Source: Convolutriloba macropyga
Lineage: Eukaryota
Direction of reading: 5' to 3'
Assembly: GCF_964194025.1 (NCBI RefSeq)
Contig: NC_134471.1
Coordinates: forward strand, 37,758,001-37,822,000
Length of the DNA stretch: 64,000 nt
The translations under genes were made by a program, and so were the position numbers. Below, piece by piece: positions 11,858 through 62,413 of this stretch (position 1 is the first letter of the stretch; each line of letters begins with the position of its first letter). Below the pieces are notes generated by a model. It ran no database searches and was not told the DNA's origin. It worked only from the letters and a program-made list of their open reading frames with translations.

Positions 11858-11902
11858 TCATCTCTTCTGGGTGGGTCCTTCGACGTCAACCTGTCGTTTT
11901 TT
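11858..11902 (-). CDS. Candidate prepropeptide gene, last coding exon (KKRQVDVEGPTQKR*)
   Basis: tttcag acceptor at 11903-11904, 45 nt in phase 0 ending TGA; minus-strand AATAAA at ~11800-11810. Confidence 0.6.
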   Translation of the reverse strand, partial: KKRQVDVEGPTQKR

Positions 11903-12081
11903 CTGAAACAAGCAGATATCTAACCTCAGAGCATCATATCATTCATGATCTTGAAATATCAGTCGTACGAGATTGACAATCTAAACTTTTGAACAGGTTT
12001 TCTTGGACCCGATGAAATGTTGAGGAAATTTGCAGCAAGAGTAATCTTGTATAAATAATGACCAGAAAAAAAGCATCAAAC

Positions 12082-12156
12082 CGGATATACGCCTCGCGCT
12101 TCGTTGAGGTCTTCTCGGTGGCCCGTTCCTGCTACCCCAAAGCCCTGTCGTTTACC
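12082..12156 (-). CDS. Candidate prepropeptide gene, coding exon 3 (GKRQGFGVAGTGHREDLNEARGVYP)
   Basis: tttcag acceptor, CCG|gtttga donor, 75 nt phase 0, GC-rich island in AT-rich DNA; shares GFGxAGTG with exon at 37094-37171. Confidence 0.65.
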
Positions 12157-12619
12157 CTGAAACATGAATGCAGCATTTTTATATTATAAATTTTGAACAC
12201 AGTGTGGATGAAAAAGGGTCGTTTAAGTCTTTAAAGGATAAATATACTAGTTTGACTTGATGATTTCAACACAAAATTTCAAGGTTTTTGGTCTACCATA
12301 GTAAACAGGCCAAAACCAGCTCTTATAAGACAGATTTTTTGCAGCTAACTTTGAGTACGCTACGCCTCTCGAAAAAGTTTGGCACCAAGTCTGCTGTCTG
12401 TGTAGCCTGACCAGGGCCCGAAGGCAACCACGGTCACTATCAATTGCCAATGTTGATAGAAAACTTTACATGCGTTGAATGCGTGTGAAATTAATGCACG
12501 CATGTTTGGCAAGGGAAAACTGCTCTACAGTTCCAAGTGAAATGCTACGTACATTTGAGCAAAATCGTGAACAGCCAATACTCCTTCATGCGCCGATCAA
12601 AACAATTTTTATAAGAAAC

Positions 12620-14880
12620 AACAAATCACAGTTTTCCCTTGCCAAACGGTTCATTTCAAAAAAACACACGTAACAAAAATCTGCTTAGAGAGCAATACCT
12701 CAATTCAGAATCTTTCCACGAGTTTTTCAAATTGAAAGCCGAAGTGTGCGCTGGCTATGAAAAAGATTTTGAAAAATTTCATAATCAATTAATTGAAAGC
12801 TCAACTTCAGAGCGCAAGAAATGGAATTTGATCAACGAATTAAGAAACTCCGTGAAAACGACAACTACGGTATACTCTTTAAAAAACTCTTTCAATGAAA
12901 TTATTACAGAAAAAACTAAAATAGCCAGCTTACTTAATTTAAAATTCAGCAAATTAGGAGAATTTTTTGAAAGTAAGAACTATACTGTAGATCTGCCTAT
13001 GGTTAGGCAAAAAAACATCTTTTCTTTTAAATTTGTTACTAAGTTCGAATGTCTTAAAATTCCCTGCTGAACTCAAAAGAGCCGACATCACTCCACTTTT
13101 TAAAAAACGAGACCTTGATGATCCTCTAAACTATCGACCAATTTCGTTAACACCAGCATTAGCAAAAGTTTTTGAATCTCTTATTAAACAACAAATCGAT
13201 GAATATGTTCATAAGAATGCCCTGCTTTCTAAAACACAGTTTGGTTTCAGAAAAAAAATTTCTACAACAGATGCTCTCGTTTATTTAACTGAAAAAATAC
13301 GATGCAACAAAAACGAGAAAAAAATTACTACAGCAGCGTTTTTAGATCTATCAAAAGCTTTTGACTCCATTAATCACAAGCTCATGATTCAAAAGCTTTC
13401 TATTCTTGGATTTTCGATACCAGCTCAAAATCTAATTACGAGCTATCTTTCAAACAGAACACAAAGAGTCATAATCAAAAATGTTAAATCAGGTTGGATT
13501 GAAGTGGCTCAAGGAGTTCCGCAGGGAACAGTCTTAGGTCCACTCTTGTTCAATCTATATGTTAACGATCTTAGCAACTTTTTGTCATGTGAAACAATAC
13601 AATACGCAGATGACACAGTACTATTAAGCTCTCATGATGAAGTTCTCAAATGCAAAGACGAGCTTGAGAAGGCCATAGAAAAATGCATACAATTTTTTAA
13701 ACTACATCACCTCAAGATCAATCCGGATAAAACAGAGTTCAATATTTTTGGTAGCTCTAATCCTCATTACGAAACGACATTAAAAGTGGGAGACAAATTA
13801 ATAAGTTCGAAAGCGGAAATCAAATATCTCGTTGTTAATATTGACAAAGACCTCAAATATCAAAAACAAGTAAAAATTCTTTTGTCAAAAATGGCCCAGG
13901 GCATTAAATGCATATATGCACTCAGGAACATAATACCCACTGGTTACAAAAAAATTACTTTGAACGCTTTTGTTCTCAGTCATGTTCAATATTCTTCTGT
14001 TTTACTTGCAACCATCAATCAAAATCTTGTAACGACATTAGAAAAGCAGTTAAATTGGGCCATCAAAGCTTGTTTTCACAGACAGAAATTTGACTCATCC
14101 TCAGATCTTAAAATGAACCTTGGTATACTACCTATTTCTTTGCTTTTTGATTACAGGGCTGCCGCTTACTGCCATAGTATCATGAATAAAAAGAAGCCTG
14201 CCTTCTCAAGCTCAGCTTTGAAATTACCAACCGCAAATTTTTATATACACGAGCGAACTCAAAAAATTTTTACCCAGACAATTTCAAAATGCAATTTGCA
14301 TGAAAAAAGTATTATTAGAAGAGGTACTCTACAGCACAATTCTTTCCCAAGAAATTATTTGTCAATGTCATACAGTCTTGCAAAGAAAAAATATAAGCTG
14401 TTTTTTCTTAATGAATACAAGAAGGACCCAAATAAAACCCAACATGGATCAATTACTTGGAAACATTTTAAATTCAATTAAATTTCTTTCTGTTTTACAT
14501 TAAATTTATGTTACTGTCGTCCCTCCCCTCCAATACAAGTGACTCCTCTATTGGATCGATATTTTAGTTATTATAAATTATTAGTTTCTCTTTTGTAATT
14601 ATCAATATTTTACACTGCCTATCTCTGTAAATTTTACTACGACTGAAACATTTACAGATTTTAGGAAAAATACAGTGTTCTTTTTTTTTCTCGTTGAACA
14701 ACATTTTGTCAAAAACGCACGAAAGGTAACCATTCTATAAAAAATGCAATTAGAGAAAAAAGGAACACGGAAATCAATCCATTAATGCTGTGCAAAACAA
14801 ATGAGAAGATTAAGCTAAAAAAATGGCTGTGCAAAAGTGTTAATAATATTAAATCCTTATAATAATAATAATATAATAAT
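12620..14880 (+). mobile_element. 5'-truncated LINE C with largely open RT and (TAA)n tail
   Basis: ORFs 12639-13070 and 13033-14481; taataataa tail at ~14860-14880. Confidence 0.9.
13033..14481 (+). pseudogene. LINE C reverse transcriptase domain (482-aa open fragment)
   Basis: NYRPISL, QFGFRK, FLDLSKAFD, GVPQGTVLGP, YADD. Confidence 0.93.
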
Positions 14881-14899
14881 AAATCCTTACTGAAAAAAT

Positions 14900-15792
14900 T
14901 TTATTTCTTCATATTGGAACCGAAGAAAAGTTAGTTTTTAAACCTTACATGTTTCCAAGACAAACAATCTGACGATTGCATGCAAGTGTCTCTTTCATAT
15001 TCATCCAGAAATGATTGAAGATTTGTTTTTCTGATTTTTTTTGTTTTCTCTTATGTAACAAGGGTAAAATATTCCATTCCTAAAATAAAGCTTTTCTAAC
15101 ATGTGAGTTTTCCAGTTTAGAGCTTTTGAATTTATAGCCCCAGAAACCGAGTCCAGTTCCTTCTTTTTTTAATTTTCCAAGGTTTTAAGTTCACGGCCCC
15201 TGCTTTTATCGAATGCAGCAATCGGTTCGTTTTAGTCTTCCAGAAGTAATTTATTCCATAGAAAATTTTTATGTTTTAGTTTCAGATCTCTAGATGAATC
15301 GAACTTTTTTCTAAAGAAGCCAGCTTTGTTAGAATAAAATTTTGATTGATAGACTGAATGATAGTTGCTGAAAAATGAATGACACTCAAAACTAATGCAT
15401 TGAGAATTAGTTTTTTCATTTTCTATCGAATGGTTTTCATTATTGTATAAATAGTCCTAATACCGGTGGCCATTTTCTAGTATTTATTTTGTTTCTTTTC
15501 AGACAGTTTAAAATTTTTCAATGTGGACGCCTAAATATTTATTTGCCCCTTTTTCATCAATGACTGAACTGTCAACAACCATATGTGTATTGCTAATTCG
15601 TTTTCTTTTTCTAAAGACTATGAATCCTGTTTTGGAGGCATTGAGACTTAACTCATGTGCTTGTAAAAACTATTTTTTTTGTTTCCTTTTCTAAAATTTT
15701 TTTGCCATTTTCAATTGAGCTATTAGATGTGAGAACGATTGTGTCATCTGCATTTGAATAATTTCTGTTTAGTTTCAAAGTGTTTTTGCAAG

Positions 15793-15834
<42 letters not shown>

Positions 15835-18824: not shown

Positions 18825-19124
18825 AGTAGTGATGTGTCTTTCTGGGCAAACTACGGGGGGGGACATAAGTGTCTTCCCGTGAACACTACGGGGGGAACAC
18901 AAGTGTCTTCCTGGGCAAACTACAGGGTGGGACATTTTGAAATTCTTTCTCCTTATTTCCCCTGCCATGCATGAAACTAATCTTAGGAAACCATTTTCCC
19001 TCCACTTGCGTGACTGGTTTGCCGCTTTGGGCTTGAAGCTATTTTAACTACCACCGCTTTTGCTTTGAAAGTGAATTCGTCATATGTCTGCGCCAGGGTA
19101 CTTTAATCTTGTTTTGGTCTGGGC
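18825..19124 (+). repeat. Left terminal inverted repeat of Maverick 1
   Basis: Reverse complement of 35842-36140; about 3 differences seen by eye. Confidence 0.96.
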
Positions 19125-19280
19125 AAACTACGGGGGGGGGGACATAAGTGTCTTCCCGTGAACACTACAGGGGGGGACACAAGTGTCTTCCCGGTCAAAC
19201 TACAGGGGGGGACATAAGTGTCTTCCCGTGAACACTACAGGGGGGACACAAGTGTCTTCCCGGTCAAACTACAGGGGGGG
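19121..19280 (+). repeat. Subterminal ~31-bp G-run tandem repeats (about 5 units)
   Basis: ctac(a)GGGGGGGaca(t/c)aagtgtcttccc units; the same unit occurs inside the TIR. Confidence 0.9.
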
Positions 19281-19494
19281 ATTTTTTCTTTGTTTTTCTC
19301 TGAGTCCTATGGAGGGGAGGGGGGACACTTGCATTTTAAAAAAAAAATCAGTTTAAGGAAACCAACCAGGAAGAACTTTAAAAACCTTGGGGGAAAAGGA
19401 GCTGTCATGTAGACACAAACAAAAAAAGTAATTATCATACCCTGCAAAAGTCACCTAATTTTTATTTGTCTATAATGCTTGCTCAAAAACAGCA

Positions 19495-19910
19495 TGACAA
19501 CAACAATCGCGACGGTAGATTTAAAAACCATTCATGAAATCTATATTTTAATAAAAACAGACTATCCAGAACATAATGAAAGATTTCTTTACTTTTTGGC
19601 AACCTGCTTGCACTTGGACCCTGATGTTAACCCCGAAATTGCACTAAAACTGAGGCCTTATGGTGGGATCATTGGAATAGATAACTCTTCATTGGATACT
19701 TATTTGAAATCATTTAAAGTGCTTCGCTTACATGCAATTCTTCATGATGCCTCTGGATTTATTGCAGAGTATAGCCAAAAGGGTCCAGGATACTCTTACG
19801 TTTTGCCTTGTCCAATCACAAACGCTTACGTTGGTCACCTGACAGGTTTGTTCTTCTGCATGTTCGTGAAAACTTTTAAACGTAACTTATTCAGTTTGCT
19901 GGAACGTTGA
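19495..19910 (+). CDS. Conserved Maverick accessory protein, tentatively PLA2-like (YGGxxG...HAxLHD...GPGY)
   Basis: Open ORF; motifs conserved in the Maverick 2 homolog at 57075-57491. The function is inference. Confidence 0.7.
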
Positions 19911-20497
19911 GTCCGGAGATTGTTGTTATAGATTTTGAAGGTTTTCGACACAAAAAGAGTGGATTCATTATAAAAGAATTATCTATTTGTTCAAACAACT
20001 ACTCAGACACGGTTCTTTTTCTTCCTCCAATTTCCTTTAACTCGCTGTCCTCGAGTGAGAGGAAATCGCATCAGTGGGTATCAAAGCATTTGCATGGTAT
20101 TTCGTGGGACAGCGGCAGCTACCCTTACTGGTTTCTATCACAAATATTTATAGCAATCAAGATCCGTTTTCCTACTGCTAAATTCTACGGAAATGGGAAG
20201 GAGAAGACGGAGACACTGCAAAAACTCCTTCAAAAAGACGTCACAAATTTAGAAACATTGCTATGTCCAAAAATTGAAGAAATCTTCACTCCAGTAGAGC
20301 ACTTGACTTGTTCACTTCATTCATCTATACTACCATTCAAACAAAAGAAAAAGCATTGCGCAAAGAGAAAGGCACAGGTGTACTTTTATTGGATAACACT
20401 ACCAACTAATGAATCGTCGTGTGGAGAAAGCAACTCCTTCAGTTCTTCAAGTGAATTTATCTCCAAATTTGACAGTATGCAGTTGCATTGCGAGTGA
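19907..20497 (+). CDS. DEDD/DnaQ-like 3'-5' exonuclease family protein
   Basis: VVIDFEGF..IIKELS Exo I motif, HGISW, C-terminal HCA; no in-frame ATG (ACG at 19904 may be a mutated start). Confidence 0.75.
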   Translation: MSPEIVVIDFEGFRHKKSGFIIKELSICSNNYSDTVLFLPPISFNSLSSSERKSHQWVSKHLHGISWDSGSYPYWFLSQIFIAIKIRFPTAKFYGNGKEKTETLQKLLQKDVTNLETLLCPKIEEIFTPVEHLTCSLHSSILPFKQKKKHCAKRKAQVYFYWITLPTNESSCGESNSFSSSSEFISKFDSMQLHCE

Positions 20498-20738
20498 TAA
20501 CCAGTTGACAGTGACTTTTCTGAAAGAAGAAAAAATTGATTCTCGTGGACAAACTATACTGAGGAAGCAGCAAATACTTTGTAATACTGCTGAAATTGAA
20601 ACACTAAAGAAATATCTTTCACTGCTGGAGTACTTTCAAATGTATCATGTCTTTACAAGAGAAAATGAAAAAACTGAAACTAACCCCTTTACCTACGCCC
20701 AAGTATCCAGTGCCAGTACCAGTACCCCTGGACGATGA
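20409..20738 (+). CDS. Maverick hypothetical protein (109 aa)
   Basis: ATG-started ORF in tightly packed cassette. Confidence 0.5.
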   Translation: MNRRVEKATPSVLQVNLSPNLTVCSCIASDNQLTVTFLKEEKIDSRGQTILRKQQILCNTAEIETLKKYLSLLEYFQMYHVFTRENEKTETNPFTYAQVSSASTSTPGR

Positions 20739-20913
20739 GTGTGTCCCCGATGAAATCAAAGAGGTAGTCAGAGAAGGAAAGGTGGAGTCAATTGTCTACT
20801 ATGGCAATGACTACGGATTCCGAGCGAACTATAAAGTAAAATATAAGAAGGAAGACAAAAACTCTGAATTTGTTACATACGAATTTTTTATGGTTGATGA
20901 ACTAACTAAATAA
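20647..20913 (+). CDS. Maverick hypothetical protein (88 aa, Pro-rich N-terminus)
   Basis: ATG-started ORF whose stop overlaps AATAAA. Confidence 0.55.
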   Translation: MSLQEKMKKLKLTPLPTPKYPVPVPVPLDDECVPDEIKEVVREGKVESIVYYGNDYGFRANYKVKYKKEDKNSEFVTYEFFMVDELTK

Positions 20914-20969
20914 ATAAACTAACAGAATTTTTGAATTAAATTCATTTTTGAAAATCATTTGCTTTCAAA

Positions 20970-21254
20970 ATGAGTCAATCAGGAGATCAATTAGATTGCG
21001 CTGGCAGTGGAGCAGGAATCACTGACTTGGTTTTTGATGATCAAAACCAAGAGAGACGGTCTTGGAGGTTTTGCAATTCTAGATTGCCGCGCTCTGAGGT
21101 AGTTTATTTTACACAAGTTTCGATAATAGTTTTTCTTATTGTAGTTTCACTGACCAAATTAGTTTTCTTCCACCTCGATTGTGAAGAATCAACATTTTGG
21201 TTTTCATTGCTATCGTGCACAGTTGGATACGCACTTCCAAATCCTAAGTTATGA
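20970..21254 (+). CDS. Small two-TM membrane protein coupled to ATPase
   Basis: Two hydrophobic segments, PRSEV...GYxLPNPK conserved in Maverick 2; ATGA overlap with ATPase. Confidence 0.8.
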   Translation: MSQSGDQLDCAGSGAGITDLVFDDQNQERRSWRFCNSRLPRSEVVYFTQVSIIVFLIVVSLTKLVFFHLDCEESTFWFSLLSCTVGYALPNPKL

Positions 21255-21982
21255 ATAAAATAGTCTCAACGAGTGATCGTCTCTTCATGGCAGTCTGTGG
21301 TCCTTCAGGTTGTGGAAAGACCGAAATTATTTTTCAAATGCTTCTTAAGAATACGTTTTTCCCGAATTTCAAGTCAATATACTATTTCTATCAACATGAT
21401 CAACCAAAATTTCAAACGATGGAGCGTAACTTGAACATTTATTTTACCAAATTCTCGGGATTTGAGTTCATTTCACAGTTGGAAAACTGTTTGCTCGTCT
21501 TTGACGATTCTTGCGAGGAAATTTTCAATGACAAGGAGTTTTCAAAACTTGCAACAGCTGGACGCCACAAAAAGATCAGTGTTATCTATGTTAAGCATAA
21601 ATTGTTTCAACAGAGTAAATGGTCTAGAACAATTGATCTCAACACAACACACATCATTTTGTTCAAATCCCCCAGAGATATACAGCAGATAAGTTATATT
21701 GGAAAACAACTCAATAACACAAACTTTTTAAAAGACAGCTATGATCTTGCAACAAAACAACCATTCGGACACTTATTGATTGATTTAGACCCAAAAACAA
21801 TCGACTCACTACGTTATTGTTCAAATATTGTACCACCGGGGCCAACAATTTTCTATCTGCCATCTTCCAAAGCTGTAATTAACCACCTCACAAATGAGAG
21901 AGAAAGAGATATGTATGCTGAGGCGAATGCTCGAAATGCCGGAAAGCATGCTAAAAAAATTCATCAAAAAATCATCAAATAA
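21251..21982 (+). CDS. A32/FtsK-HerA-type DNA packaging ATPase
   Basis: Walker A GPSGCGKT, Walker B LLVFDD, GRH motif; intact ORF. Confidence 0.95.
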   Translation: MNKIVSTSDRLFMAVCGPSGCGKTEIIFQMLLKNTFFPNFKSIYYFYQHDQPKFQTMERNLNIYFTKFSGFEFISQLENCLLVFDDSCEEIFNDKEFSKLATAGRHKKISVIYVKHKLFQQSKWSRTIDLNTTHIILFKSPRDIQQISYIGKQLNNTNFLKDSYDLATKQPFGHLLIDLDPKTIDSLRYCSNIVPPGPTIFYLPSSKAVINHLTNERERDMYAEANARNAGKHAKKIHQKIIK

Positions 21983-22190
21983 ATTTATAAAATTTCTCTG
22001 TGAATGCTTTCTCAATGTTATAAATGGAAACGTGCCCACAGATAAAAGTTTACTTGAAAACTACGAAACATCATTCCGACATTTTCTTTCCAAAGAGACA
22101 AGTTTGAGGAAAAAGCGTCAGCTATTGGTAAAAAATTTACATCTACTTCGAAGCATAAGTCTCTCTTGTTACCTTTACTTGAAGAAGTAG
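21894..22190 (+). CDS. Conserved basic Maverick protein (CECxxNVxxGNVP family)
   Basis: FLCECFLNVINGNVP motif; syntenic homolog 59673-59987. Confidence 0.75.
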   Translation: MREKEICMLRRMLEMPESMLKKFIKKSSNKFIKFLCECFLNVINGNVPTDKSLLENYETSFRHFLSKETSLRKKRQLLVKNLHLLRSISLSCYLYLKK

Positions 22191-22193
22191 TAA

Positions 22194-22989
22194 TGCATGC
22201 GGAAGAGTTTGTCTTGATACCGAAAAGAATGTTTGTGTCAAAACAACCGACTAGGACAGAAATTTTGGATAATCCCATTTATAAACAGAAAGCTGCTCAA
22301 TTGTCACTCCTCCACCGAAACAACCCAACCGATTTTGAAAGCAGAGAGGCGACTGAACAGGAAACTAATAAAACTAATATCGTGAACAAGCGCAAAAGAA
22401 GAAGAACAAGCAGTGTTGATTTAAAAAGTGAATTGGATGATGGAAGTGAAAGTGTAGTCTTTCTTTAGTGATGATGGCGAAATTGAGCCCTCATTGAAAA
22501 AAAGACAATCAGACTTTGACTCTATAATGTCAGAAGTAGAATTAATGGAAGAAAACAAAATCTAAAGAGCGGAAATCATCCTAAACAAGATATTAAGTTC
22601 AGAAACAGTTTCCATTGAGGACCCGAGTGGTTTCCTTTATATTGAGGACAAACCTATGAGAGTTAAAGTGTCAACTTTTTTGTACAATTTGCAACAGCCG
22701 ACAAAGAAAATTGACCTAGCCGTGTACACAAATATTTTGCACGAACTCAAGATACCCCCGCACTTAGTATCCAACACTCATGCTAAAAGTTCTCAAAGAA
22801 GTTTACAGCGATGAGGAGAAAGAAGAGGAAACCGAACAAATTCAAGGAGAATCAGAAAAACAACAAAGAAGCGAACAGAGCAGTGGAAGTCAAAGTAAAG
22901 CCTCCGGATCAAAAACTGCAGAACCAAAAAATCAAACAAACAAAAAGACAGAGCAGGAGACGAAAGGAAAAAAATGGGCTAACTATTAA
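22194..22989 (+). pseudogene. Maverick conserved hypothetical protein, disrupted
   Basis: MHAEEFVLIPK...TFLYNLQQ...LVSNTHAK spread over frames; homolog at 59977-60700. Confidence 0.7.
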
Positions 22990-23908
22990 AGATGTGAAAC
23001 TACTGGATAGACTCTATTCTAAAGGTCCAGCATCATTCGGAAGTTCAAAGCGATTAAAAGATTTCGGTAAACTGCCAATGACAAAAGTCAAAATGTATTT
23101 GGAAACAAAACCATCCTTCACAAAATATCGTGCACAGCGGTTGAATTTTCCGCGATTAAAAGTAATCGTCAACGATCTGAATGAAATCTGGTCTTTAGAT
23201 TTAGCTCATGTTGATAAACTTGCAAAATACAATTGTGATGTTAAATATTTGCTCGTAGCAGTTGACTGCCTCTCGAGGTATCTACGTGTTGAACCGTTGA
23301 AAACAAAAAATGCAACAGAAACCCCAAAGGCCTTCCGAAAAATGATCAAACACAAGCAACCACAAAAAGTTTGGGTGGATGATGGTACTGAGTTTTTGGG
23401 AGCTTTCAAAACACTCTAAAACAAACGAGGAATTCATTTGTATAGTACTTTCAGCAAAAAGAAGTCTGCGTTTGCAGAAAGAAACATCAGGTCACTTAAA
23501 AATATTATTTACCGATATTTGGAGGAAAAATGGACGTATTCTTATATTAACAATTTGGATCAATTCGTAAAATCTATCAACTCCCGTGTTAATCGTGTCA
23601 CCAAACTTGCTCCTAACAAAGTTACCAAAAAAGATGTACCAAGACTTGTATCATTAACTGTGGAGACACGTCGCGGTCAAAAACCAAAACTTTACGTGGG
23701 TGATTTTGTTCGAATCGTTAAAAAGGAAAAAACTTTCCGAAAAGGATACAAGCAATCTTTCACTGACGAAGTTTTTGAAATTGCCGGTATTCTGACGCTT
23801 AATCCACCTACATATTCTCTTATTGATTCTAATAAAGAAATTATCCAGGGCAAGTTTTACCAGCCAGAATTACAACTAGTACGAGAATCTCCAAATCAAA
23901 ATGAGTAA
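22811..23908 (+). pseudogene. Retroviral-like (rve/DDE) integrase with one in-frame stop
   Basis: WSLDL, VWVDDGTEF, AERNIRSLK; TAA at 23417-23419, reading continues in the same frame. Confidence 0.95.
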
Positions 23909-24788
23909 TAACCGTTTTGAGGATGAGTTCACAGTACACGTTATATCATCTGCTTCGATGGACGTTTTCCAGGAAAACACTTAAGCAAATTTCAGAAATT
24001 TTTTTAATGATGAAATTAATCTCACAGGAGACTGGAGAGTGGCTCTGAGTGAAATCATTTTTCCAACGAAAATTGAACACATAGTTAATGGAGATTTGGT
24101 TGCGTTCAGTCTCAGGGGATATGAGGAATCACAAAATCGCGCAATTGGATCCAACGTCATTTCACGACCCTACAATGGAGAAAAATTAGCGTTTATGGCT
24201 GGCACTTATGATACAGTTGCTCAACTTTTAGCAAATATCAAGAGAACAGTTGGACTGCCTAACTTCTCTTTCCGAGAAATCAAAAGCAGTGGGAAATACG
24301 AAATGATTTTTGGTAAATACGAGGGAATTACCTTTCCAAGTGAAGAAATACCCAGTATAATTGGCTTTAAAGGTATTCCAGATGGTTACGGAATTCATAT
24401 TGGATACAAAATGATTCCCACAACAGCGAACCGATTAATGATAAATGATGATACGAAAGCCTATTATGGTGATTTTCCAGCAGACCTTTGCGCTGGAAAA
24501 CATTTAATTTTTATTTACACAAACATTATTGAGTATCAGTATGTGGGTGATGCGAAAGCACCATTGTTAAGAGTCATTGATTCAAAACAGCGTTTGAAAA
24601 ACGGTAGCGTTTGTGAGTTGGAGCGCACTCACAGGATAGTTTTCACAAATTTAGACTACAAAAAACTACTTTCGAACACCATTCAATCAATATCAATTGA
24701 GCTGCGAACTGAAACGGGACAGTTAGTTCCCTTTTCGGGGACTGGTAAAGTTATTTTAACACTACAATTTAAAAAATTTGGTGATTAA
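23901..24788 (+). pseudogene. Minor capsid protein (penton) with one in-frame stop
   Basis: FTVHVISSASM..EN..ANF, GDWRVALSEI, FIYTNII, VGDAKAPLLR; TAA at 23982-23984. Confidence 0.9.
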
Positions 24789-25229
24789 ATGGATTCCTAC
24801 TACGCAAACCAAGCATCATCATTGCCTCACTTTTCCGGTCACTATAGACAAAGAGGTAGCGGTTTTGGAGCATTAGCTAGCGGTATTGGACGTGTTGCAC
24901 TGCCACTTGCTCGGAAGTTTGTTCTGCCAGCAGCTAAACGCAACGGAAAAGAACTGTTGCTACTAGGCGTCCCTGAGTTGATGGATGTTATCGGTAAAAA
25001 GAAATCACCAAAGCAAGCTCTAAAGAGCACCATATCAAACACAGTGAAAAAACAAACAGGTGGATCTTTAGCCCTCCGAATGCGACGAACGAGAAGAATA
25101 AGAAGGAATTGAAAACGCTTACGCGCTGGACCAAGGAAAACAACCAAACGCAAAACCACCATTTCACGAAAAAGAGTACCAAAAAGAAGTCGGTCGGACT
25201 TCTTCGCCAAAGTAAAAGATGATCGGTAA
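24789..25229 (+). pseudogene. Basic core/membrane-active virion protein (YY..Q..QRGSG family), premature TGA at 25110
   Basis: QRGSG and QTGG adenain-like sites; R/K-rich tail continues past the stop to RSRSDFFAKV, matching the intact 62414-62863 homolog. Confidence 0.82.
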
Positions 25230-26939: not shown

Positions 26940-26972
26940 ACATCGCTTCCACCATTTTCTAATATATTATAA

Positions 26973-27305
26973 TTAGTCTGAATTGTCGTGCTCGTCGTCT
27001 TTTTTAGTTTTACGTCTTTTCGCTGCTGGAGCTTTGTTAGCTTGATCGTTTTCAGTAGCTGTACCTACAGCAGCAGACCGTATTTTTGCTGACCTTTTTG
27101 ACAAAAGCTCAAACTCATCTAAAGTTGGAGCAATTCGTTGTTGAAGTTCATATTCCTTGTCAACTTTTTTAAATAGCTTGAGAAATACATAGGCACCCGT
27201 ATTTTCATAAGACTTCACTGTTGCGCGTATCAATCTTTTCTCTGTTCTAGAGATTTCAAAATACACGTCTCCAAACTCTGCGTCCTTATCAGCAGTAAAT
27301 GGCAT
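26973..27305 (-). CDS. PC4-like single-stranded DNA-binding protein (putative)
   Basis: FEIS..RLIRATVKSY..YVFLKLF..I..TLDEFELL resembles the PC4/Sub1 pattern; basic NLS-like tail. Confidence 0.6.
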   Translation of the reverse strand: MPFTADKDAEFGDVYFEISRTEKRLIRATVKSYENTGAYVFLKLFKKVDKEYELQQRIAPTLDEFELLSKRSAKIRSAAVGTATENDQANKAPAAKRRKTKKDDEHDNSD

Positions 27306-28097
27306 TTTCAAGAATTGTGTACTTAAACTGTGTCAAACTACCTGTTTTGAAAGAATTTTCGGAAATGATTTTTATTTACAAGTACCTTTAACACACAAAA
27401 CACAAACAACACTTTAAATGCTTACTACTGATAAGAGCGCTCTTGGTTAACATTTAGGCTTCTGATTTGAATTTGAATGTAAGTCTAGGTTATAAAACTT
27501 GGCAATTTTGTCAAAATGTAAGACAAAACTCGTGACCCTCACTTAAACTGTTTTATTGCGTTGGTAATAAAGTTTATATTTGGATAAAATTACTCAACAT
27601 AGAGCAGGAACTAGTACAATTTAATGGAAAACAAATGTGACCTCTGGGTGTGTCGATAGATAAGAAAGAACTCACAATTACACAGCAAGCGTTTGATAGA
27701 AGGCTTTAGGCCTTTGATATAACACAGTCTATTCTAAACAAAACTGATTGTAAACTTCTTGCTATTGCATACATTATAAACGTTAGTATACATATCAACA
27801 TAATAAAACTGAAAACTATTGTGTTTAAGTCTGTGTAGATAAGACTTTCTTATACACTTTGCAACTAGTTACAAAAACATAAAATTATAACACAGACAAG
27901 TTCATGTAGAGTAAACATTCACAATTGCAGTTACAACCCTTGACCTGGGTGTGTTAAGTATTCAACAAGTTTCACACACAAGTGTTGCTAATGGTGGTAT
28001 TTGCCGGATTTTATTTATTCGTTTTAAATTCAAGACTATAGTTGTTCAGTTCTGCTCCATTTTAAAGAGAACAAACTGTAAAAGTGCTTTAAAAATA

Positions 28098-28871
28098 ATG
28101 TCTTACCACATTCTTTGCGAGTCTGAAGATTCTTGGGAGCGCAGTATTGTGTATCACACTCAATACGAAAACTACATAGTTTTTATACAGCAGAAGAAAA
28201 ATAGCGAAAAAGGCTGTTGGAGATCAGTTGAACATTGCATCATACCAAAAATGTTCATGAATTTTGTTGCAACACTACCAGATAAATACGTATCTACAGA
28301 AGACGATGGCACAAAAACTGTGCTAACAGCTGGAGGATACAGTGTTCCTCGGAAAATGCCCCCACTTTTCCCCTATGACATTGAGACACTTTCTCCAGAC
28401 ACAAAGAGACTTTTGTACCGATACGATTGTGACTGTGTGCCTATTTTTGAGAATCAACTCGGCCAATTCCAGGCGATTGAAGAACTGGCTCAACTTTGGG
28501 GAATTCAACCTTCGCCAACTTCACCAGCTACTTCACCAATTGGATCACCGGCAACGAACGACCCAAGCCCCATTGTTACGCCGGAAACAACAGATACAAA
28601 ACGAAAAACAGTCATAGCTTCAATCATGGACAAAATGTCTTGGAATATGGGGTCAACCGAGCAGTTCGAACCGAATTTCGATAGTTCTCTTCTTTCAGAG
28701 ACAACTTTTGTGACACCAACGCAGAGTGCAGAGAATGCTACAGTATCCTTCGAAACGTACAGAACCTCAAACAACACAACACCCTTGAATTCAGAGACTC
28801 CCAAAGTATGCAATGCTCCACAGAAAAAACGTGCCAATCGAACACCACTTATAGATATATTTGAGGACTAA
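28098..28871 (+). CDS. Maverick hypothetical protein with S/T/P-rich disordered C-terminus
   Basis: Open ~257 aa from ATG 28098; AATAAA at ~28928. Confidence 0.7.
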   Translation: MSYHILCESEDSWERSIVYHTQYENYIVFIQQKKNSEKGCWRSVEHCIIPKMFMNFVATLPDKYVSTEDDGTKTVLTAGGYSVPRKMPPLFPYDIETLSPDTKRLLYRYDCDCVPIFENQLGQFQAIEELAQLWGIQPSPTSPATSPIGSPATNDPSPIVTPETTDTKRKTVIASIMDKMSWNMGSTEQFEPNFDSSLLSETTFVTPTQSAENATVSFETYRTSNNTTPLNSETPKVCNAPQKKRANRTPLIDIFED

Positions 28872-29179
28872 CCTGAACTCGGAAAACTGAAACTTTTTGA
28901 AACTGTCACCATTTCTATGAACCTCTAAATAAATTGTGTGCTTTAATAATATTTTTTTTTGGTGTGAAAATGTAAAAAAATATCAATTTGCATTTCTAAT
29001 TTTAATTGAACATCATAATATCTCTTTTTTGTTTGGAGAATAAAACGGGAAAGAGAAGGCAGAATCAAAAAGCATTCCGTCAAATTGTTACTTAGTGAAC
29101 GTTGGAAGAAAATCTCATATGTTATAACACAAAAAACACAGCAAGCAAGCAAAGTTCTGTTTAAAACACATATTGAAGA

Positions 29180-30130
29180 ATGAAAGTTTTTGAAACAGTA
29201 AAAAGTCAATTTTCATATGTAGGAATTCTGTAAAAGTGCAAAAATCTCACTACTTAAGTTGTTACAAAAAAATTTTATTTCACTAAACATAGGGTAAAAA
29301 AAGGTTTTTAAATGGTAAAAAGTCAATATTCATATGTAGGAATTCTGTAAAAGTGCAAAAATCTCACTACATAAGTTGTTACAAAAAAATTTTATATTAC
29401 TAACAATAGGGTAAAAAAAGGTTTTTAAATGGTAAAAAGTCAATTTTCATATGTAGGAATTCTGTAAAAGTGCAAAAATCTCACTACATAAGTTGTTACA
29501 AAAAACTTTTATTTTACTAACCATAGGGTAAAAAAAGGTTTTTAAATGGTAAAAAGTCAATTTTCATATGTAGGAATTCTGTAAAAGTGCAAAAATCTCA
29601 CTACTTAAGTTGTTACAAAAAACTTTTATTTTACTAACCATAGGGTAAAAAAAGGTTTTTAAATGGCAAAAAGTCAATTTTCATATGTAGGAATTCTGTA
29701 AAAGTGCAAAAATCTCACTACTTAAGTAGTTACAAAAAACTTTTATTTTACTAACCATAGGGTAAAAAAGGTTTTTAAATGGTAAAAAGTCAATTTTCAT
29801 ATGTAGGAATTCTGTAAAAGTGCAAAAATCTCACTACATAAGTTGTTACAAAAAACTTTTATTTTACTAACCATAGGGTAAAAAAAGGTTTTTAAATGGT
29901 AAAAAGTCAATTTTCATATGTAGGAATTCTGTAAAAGTGCAAAAATCTCACTACTTAAGTTGTTACAAAAAACTTTTATTTTACTAACCATATGGTAAAA
30001 AAAAGGTTTTTAAATGGTAAGAAGTCAATTTTCATATGTAGGAATTCTGTAAAAGTGCAAAAATCTCTCTACTTAAGTAGTTACAAAAAACTTTTATTTT
30101 ATTCATCATATAGTAGAAAAAGGTTTTTAA
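29180..30130. repeat. Internal tandem array, 8 x ~117 bp
   Basis: GAATTC recurs at 29223, 29340, 29457, 29574, 29691, 29807, 29924, 30042. Confidence 0.97.
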
Positions 30131-30964
30131 GCTTCTAAAGAAGTTCATTTTCTGTAAATAGAATGCATTTAGTTATTCCACAACCACATTTATGGTTTTC
30201 ACCAAATGACATTTGGTAAATGTGTTATCAGTACCAGTGGTAAATATCAAATCCTTAATTTCAATTGCTTTCGACCTATCTTTGTCTTATATATAGCTAC
30301 AATTTACTTTTGCACAATGATAAGATAGAGTGTCTTTCATGGAATTACTTTATGTTCACATGAAACACGCTGATAATAGCAGTTTAGAACAATTTTAGTC
30401 AATGGTATAAGAATACTGCCAAGTATTCCAGAAACCTAAAAGTGAAAACTGATTAAAGGTTGAAAATAGAACGGAATTTCGATACAACCCTCGAAGAGTA
30501 GAGAAAGTCTAAAACAACTTTTGTAGAAGAGTATTTTGAACACTTGAACTGTTTCCCGACAGAAAAGAGTATATTGTAAGTATACTGCGTTAGCTATGTT
30601 TCAGTTGTGGTAGATAACAGATATAACTAAAATTACACAATAAACTTTTACCTTGCATGGAAATAATGGAAATGAGTAGTTCTGAAACATGAACACACCG
30701 CTTATTGGTCAAAAGTTAACATGGGTTAAATTTGACCTACACTCCTACCAAGATTTGCGTTCCAAACCTGGCAAATAGTGTCAAAGTGCATGCACACCCT
30801 TATAGGGAAATTTTTCTCGTGTAAAACACATTTTTCAACCAACTAACACTCCTTCTAATTGTACCAGTTAACTGTTGTTACAATTTGACTTCATTTGCTC
30901 AGTCGTTTTCTCAGTAAAGCAGTCAGTTGAATTTTCGAAAGAAAAAAATTGAAAAAACTTAAAA

Positions 30965-33900
30965 ATGACCCAACCGTGTGAAATTTGCGCAAAGGAACTG
31001 GCCGACAAAAGAAGCCTTCGAAGACACAAACAGCGCGTTCATGGAGTTCAACCGGAATTCCCAGCCTTGGAGTGTAGCACTTGTGGTTTTGAGACTCACA
31101 ACATCCTGATAATGAACCAACACACCCGACGGGAGCACGGTGGAAAGTCCAAAATCAGTGTGCCTACTGCACTCTGGTTTTCAAAAACCAGAGTAACTTT
31201 CATCAACATCTGAAGAATGCTCACGGATTGCCTGTTTGGAACAGAGGCCAAAGCAATAATCAAGCAGTACCAGTACAGTCGGCAATTCGAGGTGCTCTGG
31301 AGATCTACGAGATTGAAGGTAATGATCACACTGACGTTTTGTCTTTCATGAACTCTTCGAGGTATCACATCAATGAACATATACGTCAAAAGACCCTCGA
31401 AGGTCCTCAGAAAGTTCAACTTTCTCTAAGCATTACACTCACAAAGGGGATTAATGAAGAAGAAAAACACGTAACAATTTACGCTAACGCTGAAATGCAA
31501 ATTGTGTACACGGATGCTCTCTCCGAAGAGCAGTTCTTTGAGTCCGTGCAGCATATTGTCAACGTGGTTTCAATGTATGCCACAAGTGGAAGTGGTTGGA
31601 TTATTGAAAAGGTAGAAAAACTCGAAATTCGATTTGCAAAATTCAACCCTATTCGGGGATCAACCTATATAGCACTTCCAACTGAACTTAGCGCTCTAAA
31701 ATGTCTGCTCAATATCCGAAACTTTAACGATCCAAACTGTTTCTTGTATTGTTTCACGGCTGCCTACCATTTGCAGGGGAAAGGTTGCCCCCTCACGCAA
31801 CCTGGGGATCGGTACAGCAAAAAAACAAACCCCGCAACATACGCTCGCTCAAACCCTTTCACTCATCAAGCAGTAGGAAATTTCCCGATGCCGATGCCAA
31901 TTGACAAAATAAGCGCGTTTGAAAGATGTAATGAAGTAAAAGTGAACGTTTTTCGATACGAAAAGAAAAGTTTGTATCCTTTCCGAATTTCAAAGCACAA
32001 CTCTGATTTTGTCGTTGATCTCCTACTGATAACTGATGGTGAACGTTATCACTACGTGCTGATAACGGACCTGGTAAACTTAGTTCGAAAAGTGCAAGGG
32101 CGACAGATTGATGCACGCGCAAAAATCTGTCGCAACTGTTTTCATGTTTGCTCGAACAACGAAACGCTTCAAAAACACGAAAAACTTTGCTATCACTTCG
32201 AAACTTGTCAAGTTCTGCTACCTGAGCCGGACAGCAACAGTCTCGCTTTCAAAAAATTTCAAGCAAAAACAGCTCTTCCACTGGTTGTCTATTTTGACCT
32301 AGAGTCAATCATTGTTCCGGTATCATCAGTTGAACAAAACCCACAGACTTCAGGGACTCGTGTGTTGGACAAACACATTCCGAGCGGTTACTGTTATGTA
32401 GCCATTTCACATGGAAGTCCAAATTTGGAGTTCTTCCATCTGTACAGAGGTGAAGATTGCATGCAAGTCTTTGTGAAGCAAATGGAGACACTGGCAAAAG
32501 ATATCTACGAGAAAAAGCAAAAATACAGGTACTTCACAGGAGCAGTTGGACAAGCAAAAGAGCTTGCGACTCACTGTTGGATATGCGAAACTAGTTTTTC
32601 TGCGGACAACGAAAAAGTCTTGGATCACTGCCATTTCTCAAATCAGTTTCTTGGCTGGGCTCACTCAAAGTGTAACCTACAGCGCAGAACACAGAGCTTC
32701 GTCCCCATAAGCGCACACAACTTGTCAGGATATGACTTGCATCATGTTGTAAAGAGTCTACATCACTGCAACTCTAACAATAAATTTTCAATAATACCTC
32801 AAACTGATGAGAATTATATCAGTTTTAGCTTTAAAGTTTGGATCAAAGATATTGTGAACAAAAATCAAAACGTCATACCCATATACGAAGAACTTCGCTT
32901 TATCGATTCTCTTCGCTTCATGCAATCGTCTTTAGATAAACTAGTTCAGTCTTTGCCTGAAGACAGTTTCGATATACTCGATAACCATTTCGAATACTGT
33001 GACCAAAATGATGTGAAACTACTGCACGGTAAAGGATTCTACCCCTACTCCTACATGGACACCTTCAGAAAATTCAAGCTAAAAAAATTGCCGCCTAAGA
33101 AGTGCTGGGTCGACAAACTCAAATCAGGAAAAGTGACAATAACCGAAGCTGACTACGAAAAAGCAAAGCTGATCTTCGAAAAATTTGATTGTAGAAACAT
33201 GGGTGAATATCACGATCTGTACTTGACAGTCGACACCCTACAGCTCGCCTGCTGGTTTGAGCGGCTACGAGCAGTCTGTCTGGACTCGTACAGCTTGGAC
33301 TGTGCTCAATATCTATCAGCACCACACTTAGCGGGCGATGCCTTTCTGAAGATATGTCAACCCGACCTGGAACTTCTCACAGATCGCAACCATCTTGATA
33401 TAGCAGAAGAATTGTTGCGAGGGGGTATGTCCTCGGTATACACAAAAAGACTGTTCACGCCAAACAACAAATATCTGGAACGTTTTGATGACACGCAAAA
33501 ATCAACATATGGTCTCACCATAGATGCTAATAACCTCTATGGTGGGATCATGAAGGATTTCTGCTTGCCACTCAATTCATTCCAGACGGACACAGAAGTG
33601 ACGATTGAACAAATTTTGCAAACTCCAGACGACGCTGAATTTTGACATATCGTCTGCGTCGACTTGGACTACCCCGACTCAATTCACGATGCTCACCAAG
33701 ATTTTCCAATGGCACACACCCGAGAACCTGTAGACAGCATGTGGTTGAGTAGCTATCAGTTGGACCTTTTGGAAGAATATCATCTCCCAAAAGTTTCAAA
33801 GTGCAACAAACTGCTTCAAACACTCTATGATGAGAAGGATTATACACTACACTATGTAACGTTGAAGATTTATGAACGAAACGGCCTTAAAGTTTCAAAA

Positions 33901-35303
33901 CTGCACAATGTGCTCAAGTTCAGACAATCAAAGTGGATGGCAAAGTATATCGAACTGAACACAAGATTGCGGCAAGCAGCAACCAGCAAAATTGCTGAAA
34001 AATTCTTCAAACTCATGAACAACTCTGCTTTTGGAAAGTGTTGTGAAAACATGCGAAATCGAGTTAACGCTTTCCTGGTCCGAGATGAACGAGCTCTCCT
34101 CAACCACAAAGATAAGTTTAACATGAAATCCTTTAAAATTTTTGATGAAAACATGGCAGTTGTGACTACAAGAAAAACGAAAATAAACTGGGTGAAACCT
34201 ACAATAGTTGGTGCTTCAATTCTGGATCTTTCAAAAGCGTTCATGTTTCGATTTCACTACGAGAATATGAAACAGTGGTTCAAGTGTGAACTTTTATACT
34301 CTGATACGGACTCACTTACCTATGCTGTTGATTGTGATGACTTGTATGAGGAGCTAGCACGAGCAGAAGTCAACACAGAATTCGATTTCTCCAACTACCC
34401 TTCTGATAACGCATTGTACAACACAGAAAATCACATGGTAACTCTCAAATTCAAAGACGAACTGGCAGGGGTGGTAATGGAAGAGTTCTGTGGCTTGAAA
34501 CCCAAAATGTATTCAATACAAACGAAGGGTATGTGTAACATTATATTTTATTAAAACAAATTCCAGTTTTGAAACTAACCAAATTCATGGAAGCGTCTTT
34601 TTAATATAACAGAAACATTGAAACCTAGATTAGGAAAGCACATAGATTAAAATAGAAAATAGATTGATTGTAATGTTCTTTCAGACTGTCAGAAGAAAAG
34701 TGCAAAGGGAATAACACATGAGGTGCAAAAGCAACTAAAGCACGAGGTCTTCAAGAGAGTATTGAACAGCGGGGAGATTGTCCGCGTCAAAAATGTGACC
34801 ATCAAATCAGAGAAACATGAGTTGATGACACTGGAACAAAACAGATTTGCGCTTTCGGCCTACTGTGACAAGCGGTTTTACCTTGACCCAATAAACTCCC
34901 TACCATTTGGCCATAACAATATTACAGAATTTGCATTTCACAATGTTATATTAAATGATTCAGATGGGAGTCAGAAAACGAAAGCGACTTGGATTCAATT
35001 TCACAACCAACCCCGGAAAATGTGATATCTGAAAACAATAGTTTTTCTCCCCCCGATCCAGGATTCAATCAACCCGATTATTCAGAAAGTGAGCTTGATC
35101 AAGATATTGTTGACTGGAATGAACCCTACGCAATTTCCCCGCCAGCCCTTGACAGTTCTTTTCTAGAATTGGAAGCAGTTGAAAGCGAAGCAAGCAATAA
35201 TAGTGATATGTCTGATTTATCTTCAAGTAATAGTCTCATAATAGAACCAACACCAAAAGGCAGACGTCTAGTATTATACAATTCAAGCAGTGAAGATAAC
35301 TGA
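30965..35303 (+). pseudogene. polB: Protein-primed family B DNA polymerase (ZnF-TP-vOTU-Exo[EndoVII]-Pol-acidic tail), one intron, disrupted
   Basis: YFDLES, HNLSGYD, DHCH..AH..CNL, IDANNLYG, KLMNNSAFGK, YSDTDS, KSAKGI; frameshift ~31150, TGA 33643-33645, intron 34529-34684, frameshift ~34965. Confidence 0.96.
34529..34684 (+). other. Putative spliceosomal intron in pPolB
   Basis: G|GTATGT donor, ttctttcag| acceptor, AT-rich with in-frame stops; removal gives YSIQTKDCQKKSAKGI. Confidence 0.85.
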
Positions 35304-35427
35304 TAACTTACAATTAGTTGTAGTTGAAGTGCATGGATAAATTATAAAAAGCATTCATATAAACTAAATACAAATTAATGTAAAAATTGAAACTTTATTA
35401 TAAAAAGAAGACAAATAAAAGGTTTCT

Positions 35428-35775
35428 CTAACGCTGTTTTATCGGGATTCCACGACGACTAAGAATAATTTCCATGGGGGAATGACTTTTAACATGGTTA
35501 GTCAAACCATTTTGCTGGGTAAAAACTTTGAAACAAATTTTACACCTTAAAACAGGGTTTTGGATAATTAGAGGGGGCGCAATAACTACTGAATTTTCAC
35601 ACTGGTGGTATCGTGTGTCAATTAAAAGCCAAATTTTCCGATTGCAGTTTTCACATTGATATCTAAAATTGTTGGGGTGTATTTCTTCAAAATGAGTAAA
35701 AAGATCTTTAGAATTTAAAAATTTGGAGCGACACAGAAAGCAGTCCAACAAGCAACGTTTTCGCCTTGGTGGCAT
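35428..35775 (-). CDS. C2H2 zinc-finger protein (3 fingers)
   Basis: CxxC-F-L-H-H patterns; convergent with polB, AATAAA on both strands at ~35393-35420. Confidence 0.85.
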   Translation of the reverse strand: MPPRRKRCLLDCFLCRSKFLNSKDLFTHFEEIHPNNFRYQCENCNRKIWLLIDTRYHQCENSVVIAPPLIIQNPVLRCKICFKVFTQQNGLTNHVKSHSPMEIILSRRGIPIKQR

Positions 35776-35841
35776 TTGGAATTCGTATTCTGGTATTGGG
35801 TGTGTAGGTTCTGTATAACTGTGGGTAAAATGTTGAAATGG

Positions 35842-36140
35842 GCCCAGACCAAAACAAGATTAAAGTACCCTGGCGCAGACATATGACGAATTCACTTTCA
35901 AAGCAAAAGCGGTGGTAGTTAAAATGGCTTCAAGCCCAAAGCGGCAAACCAGTCACGCAAGTGGAGGGAAAATGGTTTCCTAAGATTAGTTTCATGCATG
36001 GCAGGGGAAATAAGGAGAAAGAATTTCAAAATGTCCCACCCTGTAGTTTGCCCAGGAAGACACTTGTGTCCCCCCCGTAGTGTTCACGGGAAGACACTTA
36101 TGTCCCCCCCGTAGTTTGCCCAGAAAGACACATCACTACT
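35842..36140 (-). repeat. Right terminal inverted repeat of Maverick 1
   Basis: Ends ACTACT followed by TSD AGTATC. Confidence 0.96.
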
Positions 36141-37093: not shown

Positions 37094-37171
37094 CATGACT
37101 TCTCCTGGTACTCCAACTTGGTATCCAGGGTATTGATCTCCTGTTCCGGCAGTTCCAAAGCCATCCCGCTC
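37094..37171 (-). CDS. Candidate prepropeptide gene, coding exon 2 (ERDGFGTAGTGDQYPGYQVGVPGEVM)
   Basis: ttttag acceptor, gtaag donor, 78 nt phase 0. Confidence 0.7.
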
Positions 37172-39278: not shown

Positions 39279-39299
39279 CACAACAAATACAACAACAAG

Positions 39300-39343
<44 letters not shown>

Positions 39344-39344
39344 C
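39279..39344 (+). repeat. (AAC)n microsatellite next to assembly gap
   Basis: Direct observation. Confidence 0.95.
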
Positions 39345-39358
39345 TCAAAATCATTATT

Positions 39359-39575
39359 NNNNNNNNNNNNNNNNNNNNNNNNNNNNNNNNNNNNNNNNNN
39401 NNNNNNNNNNNNNNNNNNNNNNNNNNNNNNNNNNNNNNNNNNNNNNNNNNNNNNNNNNNNNNNNNNNNNNNNNNNNNNNNNNNNNNNNNNNNNNNNNNNN
39501 NNNNNNNNNNNNNNNNNNNNNNNNNNNNNNNNNNNNNNNNNNNNNNNNNNNNNNNNNNNNNNNNNNNNNNNNNNN
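39359..39575. other. Assembly gap (N run)
   Basis: 217 Ns. Confidence 1.
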
Positions 39576-40042
39576 TACAAAAACAGCAGCAGCAAAAAGA
39601 AGAACAAGAAGAAGAAGAGGAAGAACAACAACAACAAAACGTGGAACGTCCAAAACTGTTATTTTTTAATGTTAATCACGATGAGCCTCGTAATTTGTTT
39701 GATTGCTCTAAAAAACTGTCCCACATTGGGACGAAAAGTTTCTCTCCAACAGTCGGGTTTTGTTATATTTGTAAAGACCGAGTTGTAAGCAATTTGGCGG
39801 GAAATTATAGAAAAACGTGAACGATGGGTTAATTAATTTACTTTGAATTAGGAAAGTACTTTAATAAGAAAAGAAATGCAGCGCTTCACTTTGTATCGAG
39901 GTCATTACAACTGCATTACAACTTTACAACTTTAGATTAGGAAATAATTTTGGTGTCCTTTATAGGATCACATAATAATAATCTATGTATCTAAGTTGAT
40001 ATGTAATATCTGAGAAGATGTGGAATACATTACCGATATTAC

Positions 40043-40126
40043 CATTGATTTTGATTCAACCCGTAATAGTTGCATTAGAACAATGGAAGCTGTCAGCAAG
40101 AACATCTTGTTGCACTTGTCAGACAT
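40043..40126 (-). CDS. Candidate prepropeptide gene, first coding exon (signal peptide MSDKCNKMFLLTASIVLMQLLRVES-KSM)
   Basis: Hydrophobic h-region with V-E-S cleavage-like site; ATG|gtaata donor in phase 0; upstream acceptor ttttttgtccag at 40158. Confidence 0.6.
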
Positions 40127-61583: not shown

Positions 61584-61584
61584 A

Positions 61585-62412: not shown

Positions 62413-62413
62413 A

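Follow-up and report, generated by a model that had tools for sequence, protein, structure and literature searches.

A 64,000-nucleotide (nt) stretch of the genome of the acoel Convolutriloba macropyga (NCBI RefSeq assembly GCF_964194025.1, contig NC_134471.1), hereafter the window, carries on its minus strand four short coding exons that likely constitute one gene, a reading to which we assign a probability of about 0.68. The product would be a secreted prepropeptide of 93 residues, cut into two acidic xGFG peptides and a short tail, which would likely act as signals between cells, either as neuropeptides or in a paracrine manner. Judged from sequence, the gene is real and protein-coding, appears restricted to this lineage and most likely yields signalling peptides; the signalling role is argued from the anatomy of the precursor. 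The novelty is that the window gene and its neighbours define a small unnamed family; one published entry for a neighbour, Cmac_2219.1, and the neuropeptide-precursor type of gene were already known. The contig carrying the window is designated C4, the window being C4:37758001-37822000, and genome-wide searches covered the 1.18-Gb assembly.

The four minus-strand segments proposed in an earlier note, which was based on the letters of the window, were all recovered at their exact positions (Table 1), with AG and GT at their ends, and every junction was in phase 0. Joined, they encode 93 amino acids free of internal stops, and the three introns measure 2871, 24937 and 179 nt. The content of guanine plus cytosine (GC) in exons 2-4 is 0.49-0.60, compared with 0.33-0.38 in their flanks, and exon 1 lacks this contrast (0.38 versus 0.37). 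As had been claimed, the two GFGxAGTG copies differ mainly at third codon positions, the cores of exons 2 and 3 having 2, 1 and 7 differences at the first, second and third positions, respectively. The suspicion that the exons may be read in another frame could be dismissed for exon 3, whose frames 2 and 3 contain stops, but not for exon 2, which is also open in an alternative frame. The window contains two instances of an acceptor combined with a basic pair and xG[FY]G, a pattern drawn up after the exons were known; two hits were obtained in none of 200 order-2 Markov controls, and a single hit in 2 of them. Exon 1 has a single match in the genome assembly. By comparison with the paralogue pC, described below, an upstream non-coding exon would precede the acceptor at 40157. 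A search limited to phase 0 revealed no further exons with a GC content of at least 0.47, either in introns 1 and 2 outside the Maverick element of intron 2 or in positions 40127-57000.

Table 1. Features of the window gene, its relatives and the intronic Maverick (window numbering unless a contig is named; "extended window" positions run on past 64,000 in the same numbering).
Feature	Position	Strand	Description
First coding exon	40043..40157	-	31 nt of 5' untranslated region (40127-40157) after acceptor, then 28 codons (40043-40126, 84 nt) for predicted signal peptide and short spacer; donor GTAATA
Peptide exon 2	37094..37171	-	78 nt, 26 codons; acceptor TTTTAG, donor GTAAGA; Glu-Arg, then peptide 1 (starts DGFG)
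Peptide exon 3	12082..12156	-	75 nt, 25 codons; acceptor TTTCAG, donor GTTTGA; Gly-Lys-Arg, then peptide 2 (22 residues, starts QGFG)
Last coding exon 4	11858..11902	-	45 nt, 14 codons and TGA; acceptor TTTCAG; Lys-Lys-Arg, 9-residue acidic Gln-initial tail peptide, Lys-Arg
Candidate polyadenylation signal AATAAA	11804-11809	-	49 nt past the stop of exon 4
Motif exons, C4 minus strand	extended window 12156, 37171, 82749, 85181	-	behind AG, phase 0, basic site then motif
Motif exons, C4 plus strand	extended window 143020, 184494, 190853	+	terminal exons, behind AG, phase 0
Paralogue pA	C4:37897787-37901142 (extended window 139787-143142)	+	two exons, 67 residues, peptide starts MGFG
Paralogue pB	C4:37939557-37942610 (extended window 181557-184610)	+	two exons, 67 residues, peptide starts NGYG; 5 kb upstream of Cmac_2219.1 gene
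Paralogue pC (Cmac_2219.1)	C4:37947658-37948990 (extended window 189658-190990)	+	two exons, 73 residues
Orphan motif exons	C4:37840687-37840749, 37843119-37843181 (extended window 82687-82749, 85119-85181)	-	near-identical, 21 codons each; tandem duplication among simple repeats
C3 family exons	C3:56145421-56145504, 56145985-56146056		second lies 480 nt behind first, more diverged, without basic site; adjoin assembly gap
Maverick/Polinton element, 17.3 kb	18825..36140	+ (opposite to host gene)	inside intron 2; terminal inverted repeats starting AGTAGT, 6-bp target-site duplication AGTATC

The window gene has relatives nearby. Exons that follow an AG and open with (x)KR-x-G[FY]G-x-x-GT number seven in 304 kb of C4, with one more on contig C3. 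Genome-wide, a tight codon pattern gave 5 matches versus 0 in the control, and a wider pattern gave 9 versus 2; eight of these nine are family exons, and the ninth (on C8) was not counted as such. A looser genome pattern was at chance level (31 matches versus 29 in the control), and extra hits on C7, C2784 and C2701 were dropped for want of an acceptor and a basic pair. On a motif matrix built from seven motif exons, exons 2 and 3 among them, these two exons scored 41 bits, and no other match of at least 12 bits was found in the 304 kb, nor any in the reversed control. Over ten core codons of the eight motif exons, pairwise differences amounted to 59, 58 and 171 at codon positions 1, 2 and 3, with all ten third positions variable, a skew that argues for protein-level selection in this frame.

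Three of the relatives, all on the plus strand, are complete genes of two exons each, in which a signal exon of 27-29 codons lies 1.1-3.2 kb upstream of the peptide exon. In all three, the junction is in phase 0, a candidate acceptor precedes the ATG by 23-33 nt, and the peptide exon opens with KR. Exon 1 of the window gene fits this plan, with its 28 codons and an acceptor at -31, equal to that of pC. When both strands of the 304 kb were put through a signal-exon filter, tuned after the signal exons were known, five loci passed, namely the three paralogues, window exon 1 and one unrelated locus. No signal or terminal exon for the two orphan motif exons was detected in the 304 kb searched, and the remainder of the C3 gene, including its signal exon, was not found in 150 kb; the first C3 exon and window exon 2 both contain YPGY. 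Together, the window gene, the three complete neighbours and the partial C3 gene make a family of at least five genes, which probably grew by local gene duplication combined with duplication of single phase-0 peptide exons. The earlier note had allowed for two tandem paralogues in place of one gene. In the wider sense of a gene cluster this proved correct, but within the window a single four-exon gene remains the simplest model, because the search from exon 2 to exon 3 turned up no convincing signal exon besides exon 1.

One of the neighbours, pC, was already represented by a transcript. Cmac_2219.1 is given in the available part of the supplement of Thiel et al. 2018 as an unclassified "additional preproneuropeptide candidate" of C. 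macropyga (PMC6188537), and the genome model of pC, compared by eye, is identical to it at 73 of 73 residues from Met to stop, splice junction included. The translated 5' untranslated region of that entry, as far as available, crosses an intron whose end lies 31 nt ahead of the ATG, just as the acceptor of the window gene does. Since pC matches a published transcript across its junction, the exon plan of the family is real. pC lies ∼150 kb from the window gene on the opposite strand. The two genes have in common a signal exon of 28 codons whose acceptor is placed 31 nt ahead of the ATG, KR followed by xGFGTxGTG, a basic cluster preceded by an amidation-type G, and acidic tails; unlike the window gene, in which two motif peptides each occupy their own exon, pC encodes one motif peptide in one terminal exon. 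In the parts at hand, Thiel et al. gave Cmac_2219.1 no family name and listed no paralogues, and pA is absent from their C. macropyga precursor list (PMC6188537). The view that the family is unrecognised thus stands insofar as it is unnamed, although one paralogue had been on record since 2018 as an unclassified candidate. Because the paralogues share the same exon plan and one of them has a published transcript, the proposal of a secreted prepropeptide of the neuropeptide-precursor type in this frame is upheld.

Rule-based inspection of the window precursor revealed the features of a signal peptide: a basic N-region, a hydrophobic core (12-residue mean hydropathy 2.2) and (-3,-1) sites after residues 25 and 27. 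GKR, KKR and the terminal KR flank peptide 2 and the tail, and peptide 1 has on its N-terminal side a single Arg only; the site there is Glu-Arg, compared with Lys-Arg in 7 of 7 other motif exons. Following entry into the secretory pathway, the signal peptide would be removed after residue 25 or 27, and prohormone convertases would act at the GKR, KKR and KR sites, cleavage at the lone Arg of exon 2 being less certain. The expected products would be a Gln-initial peptide of 22 residues, an acidic tail of 9 and, from exon 2, a peptide with an amidated C-terminus; this peptide 1 would be amidated via the Gly that opens exon 3, and both Gln-initial peptides may carry pyroglutamate. In the available text of Thiel et al. 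(PMC6188537), mass spectrometry showed amidation and pyroglutamate for other precursors from this species group; for the window gene both modifications, like neuronal expression, are predicted. The amidated 24-mer of the earlier note survives in part: the Gly amide donor is present ahead of Lys-Arg, but the N-terminal site is not dibasic. Since Glu-Arg replaces Lys-Arg in exon 2, the exact 24-mer is doubtful, and an N-terminally extended, longer form would be as likely. The predicted pieces, three from the window gene and seven from the three paralogues, are all net acidic (-1 to -5), with a Gly fraction of at most 0.40 and no Cys framework. A G-protein-coupled receptor may read the common N-terminal x-G-[FY]-G-x-x-G-T, and the variable C-terminal halves would tune stability or specificity; a receptor that reads the N-terminus is suggested because the motif is conserved directly behind the cleavage site and the C-terminal halves are free.

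Second forms of the exons were observed. A block of ∼21 kb on contig C2 (C2:43934643-43956031) is colinear with window positions -11232 to 12508 at mostly 89-96% identity (89-95% as far as about 12300) and ends near an assembly gap on both contigs. Its copy of exons 3 and 4 differs from the window at four sites, all synonymous (3/3 in exon 3 and 1/1 in exon 4), with no insertions or deletions; taken by themselves, these two exons give p about 0.004-0.007. In the 140 nt of intron 2 next to them, differences reach 26% with 4 gaps, intron 3 shows 5.6% and 4 gaps, and 3.3% of sites differ in the first 300 nt of the 3' untranslated region. Exons 1 and 2 were not found on C2 in the 267 kb read upstream of this copy. 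In 4 of 4 DNA runs, which come from one study and at most three samples and whose contig depth gives no copy number, exons 3-4 were present in both forms, and exon 2 likewise had a second form. The second form of exon 2, which was not returned by the assembly search, keeps the splice sites and the GFG...GTG core. The intron below 37080 was covered by only one exon-2 form in these runs, and the uncovered part carries no weight. The C2 block is probably a second haplotype partly misplaced in the assembly, implying heterozygosity of several percent; it may also be a true partial duplicate.

A single four-exon gene is the most economical model because exon 2 has a donor with no polyadenylation signal behind it, no signal exon intervenes before exon 3, and the Gly of exon 3 would serve as an amide donor. 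The donor of exon 2 is of consensus type, and no AATAAA or ATTAAA occurs in the next 394 nt. Outside the Maverick, the stretch from exon 2 to exon 3 yielded no credible signal exon, a relaxed filter giving one weak candidate, inside a remnant of a long interspersed nuclear element (LINE). Transcripts of such a gene would be spliced across the 24.9-kb intron 2 with the Maverick in it. No RNA run was found for window positions 11380-12200, and the four sequencing runs behave as genomic DNA, without splice joints, and are uninformative on expression. Several observations weigh against this model. The exon-3 donor, GTTTGA, is weak, and read-through would stop two codons on, so that exon 3 may be the last of its transcript. 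On the same strand, 43-45 kb upstream, lie the two orphan motif exons, for which the 304 kb searched gave no partners, and this leaves room for other splice paths. Cleavage behind a single Arg follows the rule of a basic residue at P4, P6 or P8; the Glu-Arg of peptide 1 has none at these positions, and its N-terminus may not be freed as drawn. The second exon-2 form has four substitutions outside the core, all non-synonymous (D>N, D>T, Q>E). With exons 2-4 pooled, 4 of 8 differences are synonymous, no excess over chance (p 0.11-0.18); evidence of constraint at the allele level is therefore mixed, the changes being all non-synonymous in exon 2 (0/4 synonymous, by itself unremarkable at p 0.25-0.32) and all synonymous in exons 3-4. 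Finally, the available list of Thiel et al. does not include the window precursor, two motifs having given 0 hits there (PMC6188537).

Exons 1-2 and 3-4 might accordingly belong to different transcripts, exon 2 being read through or joined to an unseen exon, and exons 3-4 being fed by the orphan exons or by a signal exon that the assembly does not contain. We regard such wiring as unlikely. It would agree with the compact two-exon build of the complete paralogues, whose spacing resembles that of exon 1 to exon 2 (2.9 kb), with the C2 copy, in which exons 3-4 occur without exons 1-2 in the 267 kb read upstream, with the good donors of the partnerless orphan exons, and with an assembly gap at extended window 103989-104188. 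It is opposed by the donor and the missing polyadenylation signal of exon 2, by the lack of a good signal exon between exons 2 and 3, by the C3 paralogue, in which consecutive motif exons exist, and by the occurrence of exon 2 and exons 3-4 each in two forms in all four DNA runs, as for two versions of one gene. Highly improbable, in our view, is that the window copy is a decaying family member, inactivated by the 17-kb Maverick together with loss of its first dibasic site. The change from Lys-Arg to Glu-Arg, the non-synonymous drift in exon 2 and the transposon load in introns 1 and 2 would accord with decay, but no stop, frameshift or lost splice site was seen in the four exons, in the second exon-2 form or in exons 3-4 of C2, the latter differ by synonymous changes only, and the Maverick genes lie on the opposite strand.

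With regard to function, mature peptides of the nlp-29/cnc class are cationic and rich in Gly and Tyr, and typical antimicrobial peptides are unlike the net-acidic pieces seen here. Membership in this Gly-rich antimicrobial class was rejected, as 10 of 10 predicted pieces are net negative. The main functional rival to neuronal or paracrine signalling nevertheless takes the gene as real and its peptides as secreted defence, mucus or inter-individual signals, by analogy with the nlp-29/caenacin cluster of C. elegans; we consider it improbable, and signalling remains our best guess. The products of that cluster were first called neuropeptide-like and subsequently shown to be antimicrobial. According to the available text, the cluster is glycine/tyrosine-rich and recently expanded and shows positive selection (PMC2453101). 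The window family resembles it in being clustered and lineage-restricted and in its neuropeptide-like precursors with Gly/aromatic motifs, and its tails change fast; the window peptides are acidic and less Gly-rich, and no sequence match was found, so the likeness is one of analogy only. A defence role would also suit the purely amino-acid-changing differences in exon 2 (which, as noted, are unremarkable statistically) and the toxin released by damaged Convolutriloba, the chemistry of which is unstated in the accessible text (PMC12849515). The charge of the pieces, their modest Gly content and the lack of a Cys framework weigh against it, and so does the position of the conserved N-terminal motif immediately after a dibasic site, which would suit a receptor ligand.

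Among known acoel peptides, the multicopy MxGFG(amide) peptides (Thiel et al. 2018, in the parts available) share with the window family an N-terminal G[FY]G just behind Lys-Arg and the combination of amidated and non-amidated peptides on one precursor. In MxGFG peptides two residues, the first being Met, precede GFG, and the paracopies are short and near-identical; in the window family one variable residue precedes G[FY]G, x-x-G-T follows, and the peptides are about 14-24 residues long. None of the eight motif exons has two residues before G[FY]G, although one paralogue has Met directly before GFG, and the two motif peptides of the window gene (22-24 residues) are alike in their first nine residues only. 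The MxGF multicopy gene of this animal (Cmac_607.1 of Thiel et al., from the accessible list) is a separate locus at C9:60.67 Mb on the minus strand, with six paracopies in its last exon. Without Met-x before GFG and without short paracopies, and with the MxGF gene itself located elsewhere, membership in the MxGFG family was rejected. Achatin and GFGN peptides likewise have GFG near the N-terminus behind a basic site. Achatins are, in the sources available, usually tetrapeptides flanked by basic sites, and no GFGN/GFAD-type tetrapeptide between basic sites is encoded by the window gene or by any of the three complete paralogues, so that achatin membership was also rejected. A distant common origin of the three groups, all with GFG near the N-terminus, is possible. 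Thiel et al. reported, in the text at hand, acoels with achatin-type receptors and no achatin precursor; among the acoels of their list an achatin-named receptor appears only in Diopisthoporus longitubus, and for C. macropyga they list a G-protein-coupled receptor distantly related to achatin/GnRH/vasotocin receptors (PMC6188537).

Searches for relatives used short queries, the products of single exons, which are weak for distant homologues. A profile of seven motif exons run against 1.84 billion representatives gave two hits, both of them unnamed gene calls of one exon that are identical to exons of the family in this animal. In a word-index search, none of 7990 longer scored proteins matched, and 2 of 52 near-length candidates were the same two family exons. 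Pfam matched 0 of 7 motif exons, and the ESM Atlas returned no usable hit for one exon product. With no homologue outside C. macropyga in these protein, Pfam and ESM Atlas searches, the family appears lineage-restricted. No description of it was found in the literature on acoel neuropeptides, GFG peptides or Symsagittifera/Praesagittifera peptidomics; its motif is absent from the accessible text and four supplement files of PMC12849515, and the available part of a 2026 Praesagittifera preprint (10.64898/2026.09.27.754747) does not mention it. For a 2026 review, in the portion available, the survey of Thiel et al. is still the most comprehensive one (PMC13551398).

According to the available texts, many neuropeptides conserved among bilaterians seem to be missing from acoels and to be replaced there by lineage-specific ones (PMC6188537; PMC13551398). 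The motif screen of Thiel et al., as described in the part at hand, required three amidation sites or four dibasic sites (PMC6188537), and the precursors of the window family fall below these criteria. A single unclassified supplement entry thereby becomes a family of several genes, with exact peptides that can be taken to mass spectrometry and to orphan acoel receptors. A more far-reaching picture, to which we give little credence as yet, would make this a distinct, fast-evolving acoel family, an N-terminus-recognised offshoot of ancient GFG (achatin-like) signalling built by duplication of one-peptide exons and of genes; its peptides might be ligands for orphan receptors, such as the achatin/GnRH/vasotocin-related receptor of C. 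macropyga, or signals between clone-mates or to the algal symbiont. General ideas on neuropeptide biology are unchanged. The gene also illustrates how a genome rich in transposons can conceal small peptide genes, in this case through a Maverick of 17 kb within an intron.

The Maverick that the gene was first proposed to span was confirmed, with both ends of the element placed within the predicted intron 2, which without it would measure 7621 nt. The matches to its A32-type ATPase and integrase are at or below the Pfam cut-off. The element is an ordinary insertion, a passenger outside the peptide system. At ∼57100-64000 on the plus strand lies another Maverick-like element, diverged from the intronic one and sharing its gene order, which continues beyond the window end. 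LINE-type reverse-transcriptase fragments (Pfam RVT_1) are located at 12991-14481, inside intron 2, and at 43373-45938, both on the plus strand. A 547-bp match between intron 1 and C2 was ruled out as synteny because it is a high-copy repeat. Intron 1 contains at 37587-38200 a high-copy element of ∼600 bp with internal inverted repeats, for which a first look gave 3919 candidates, 40 of them scored at 96-98% identity.

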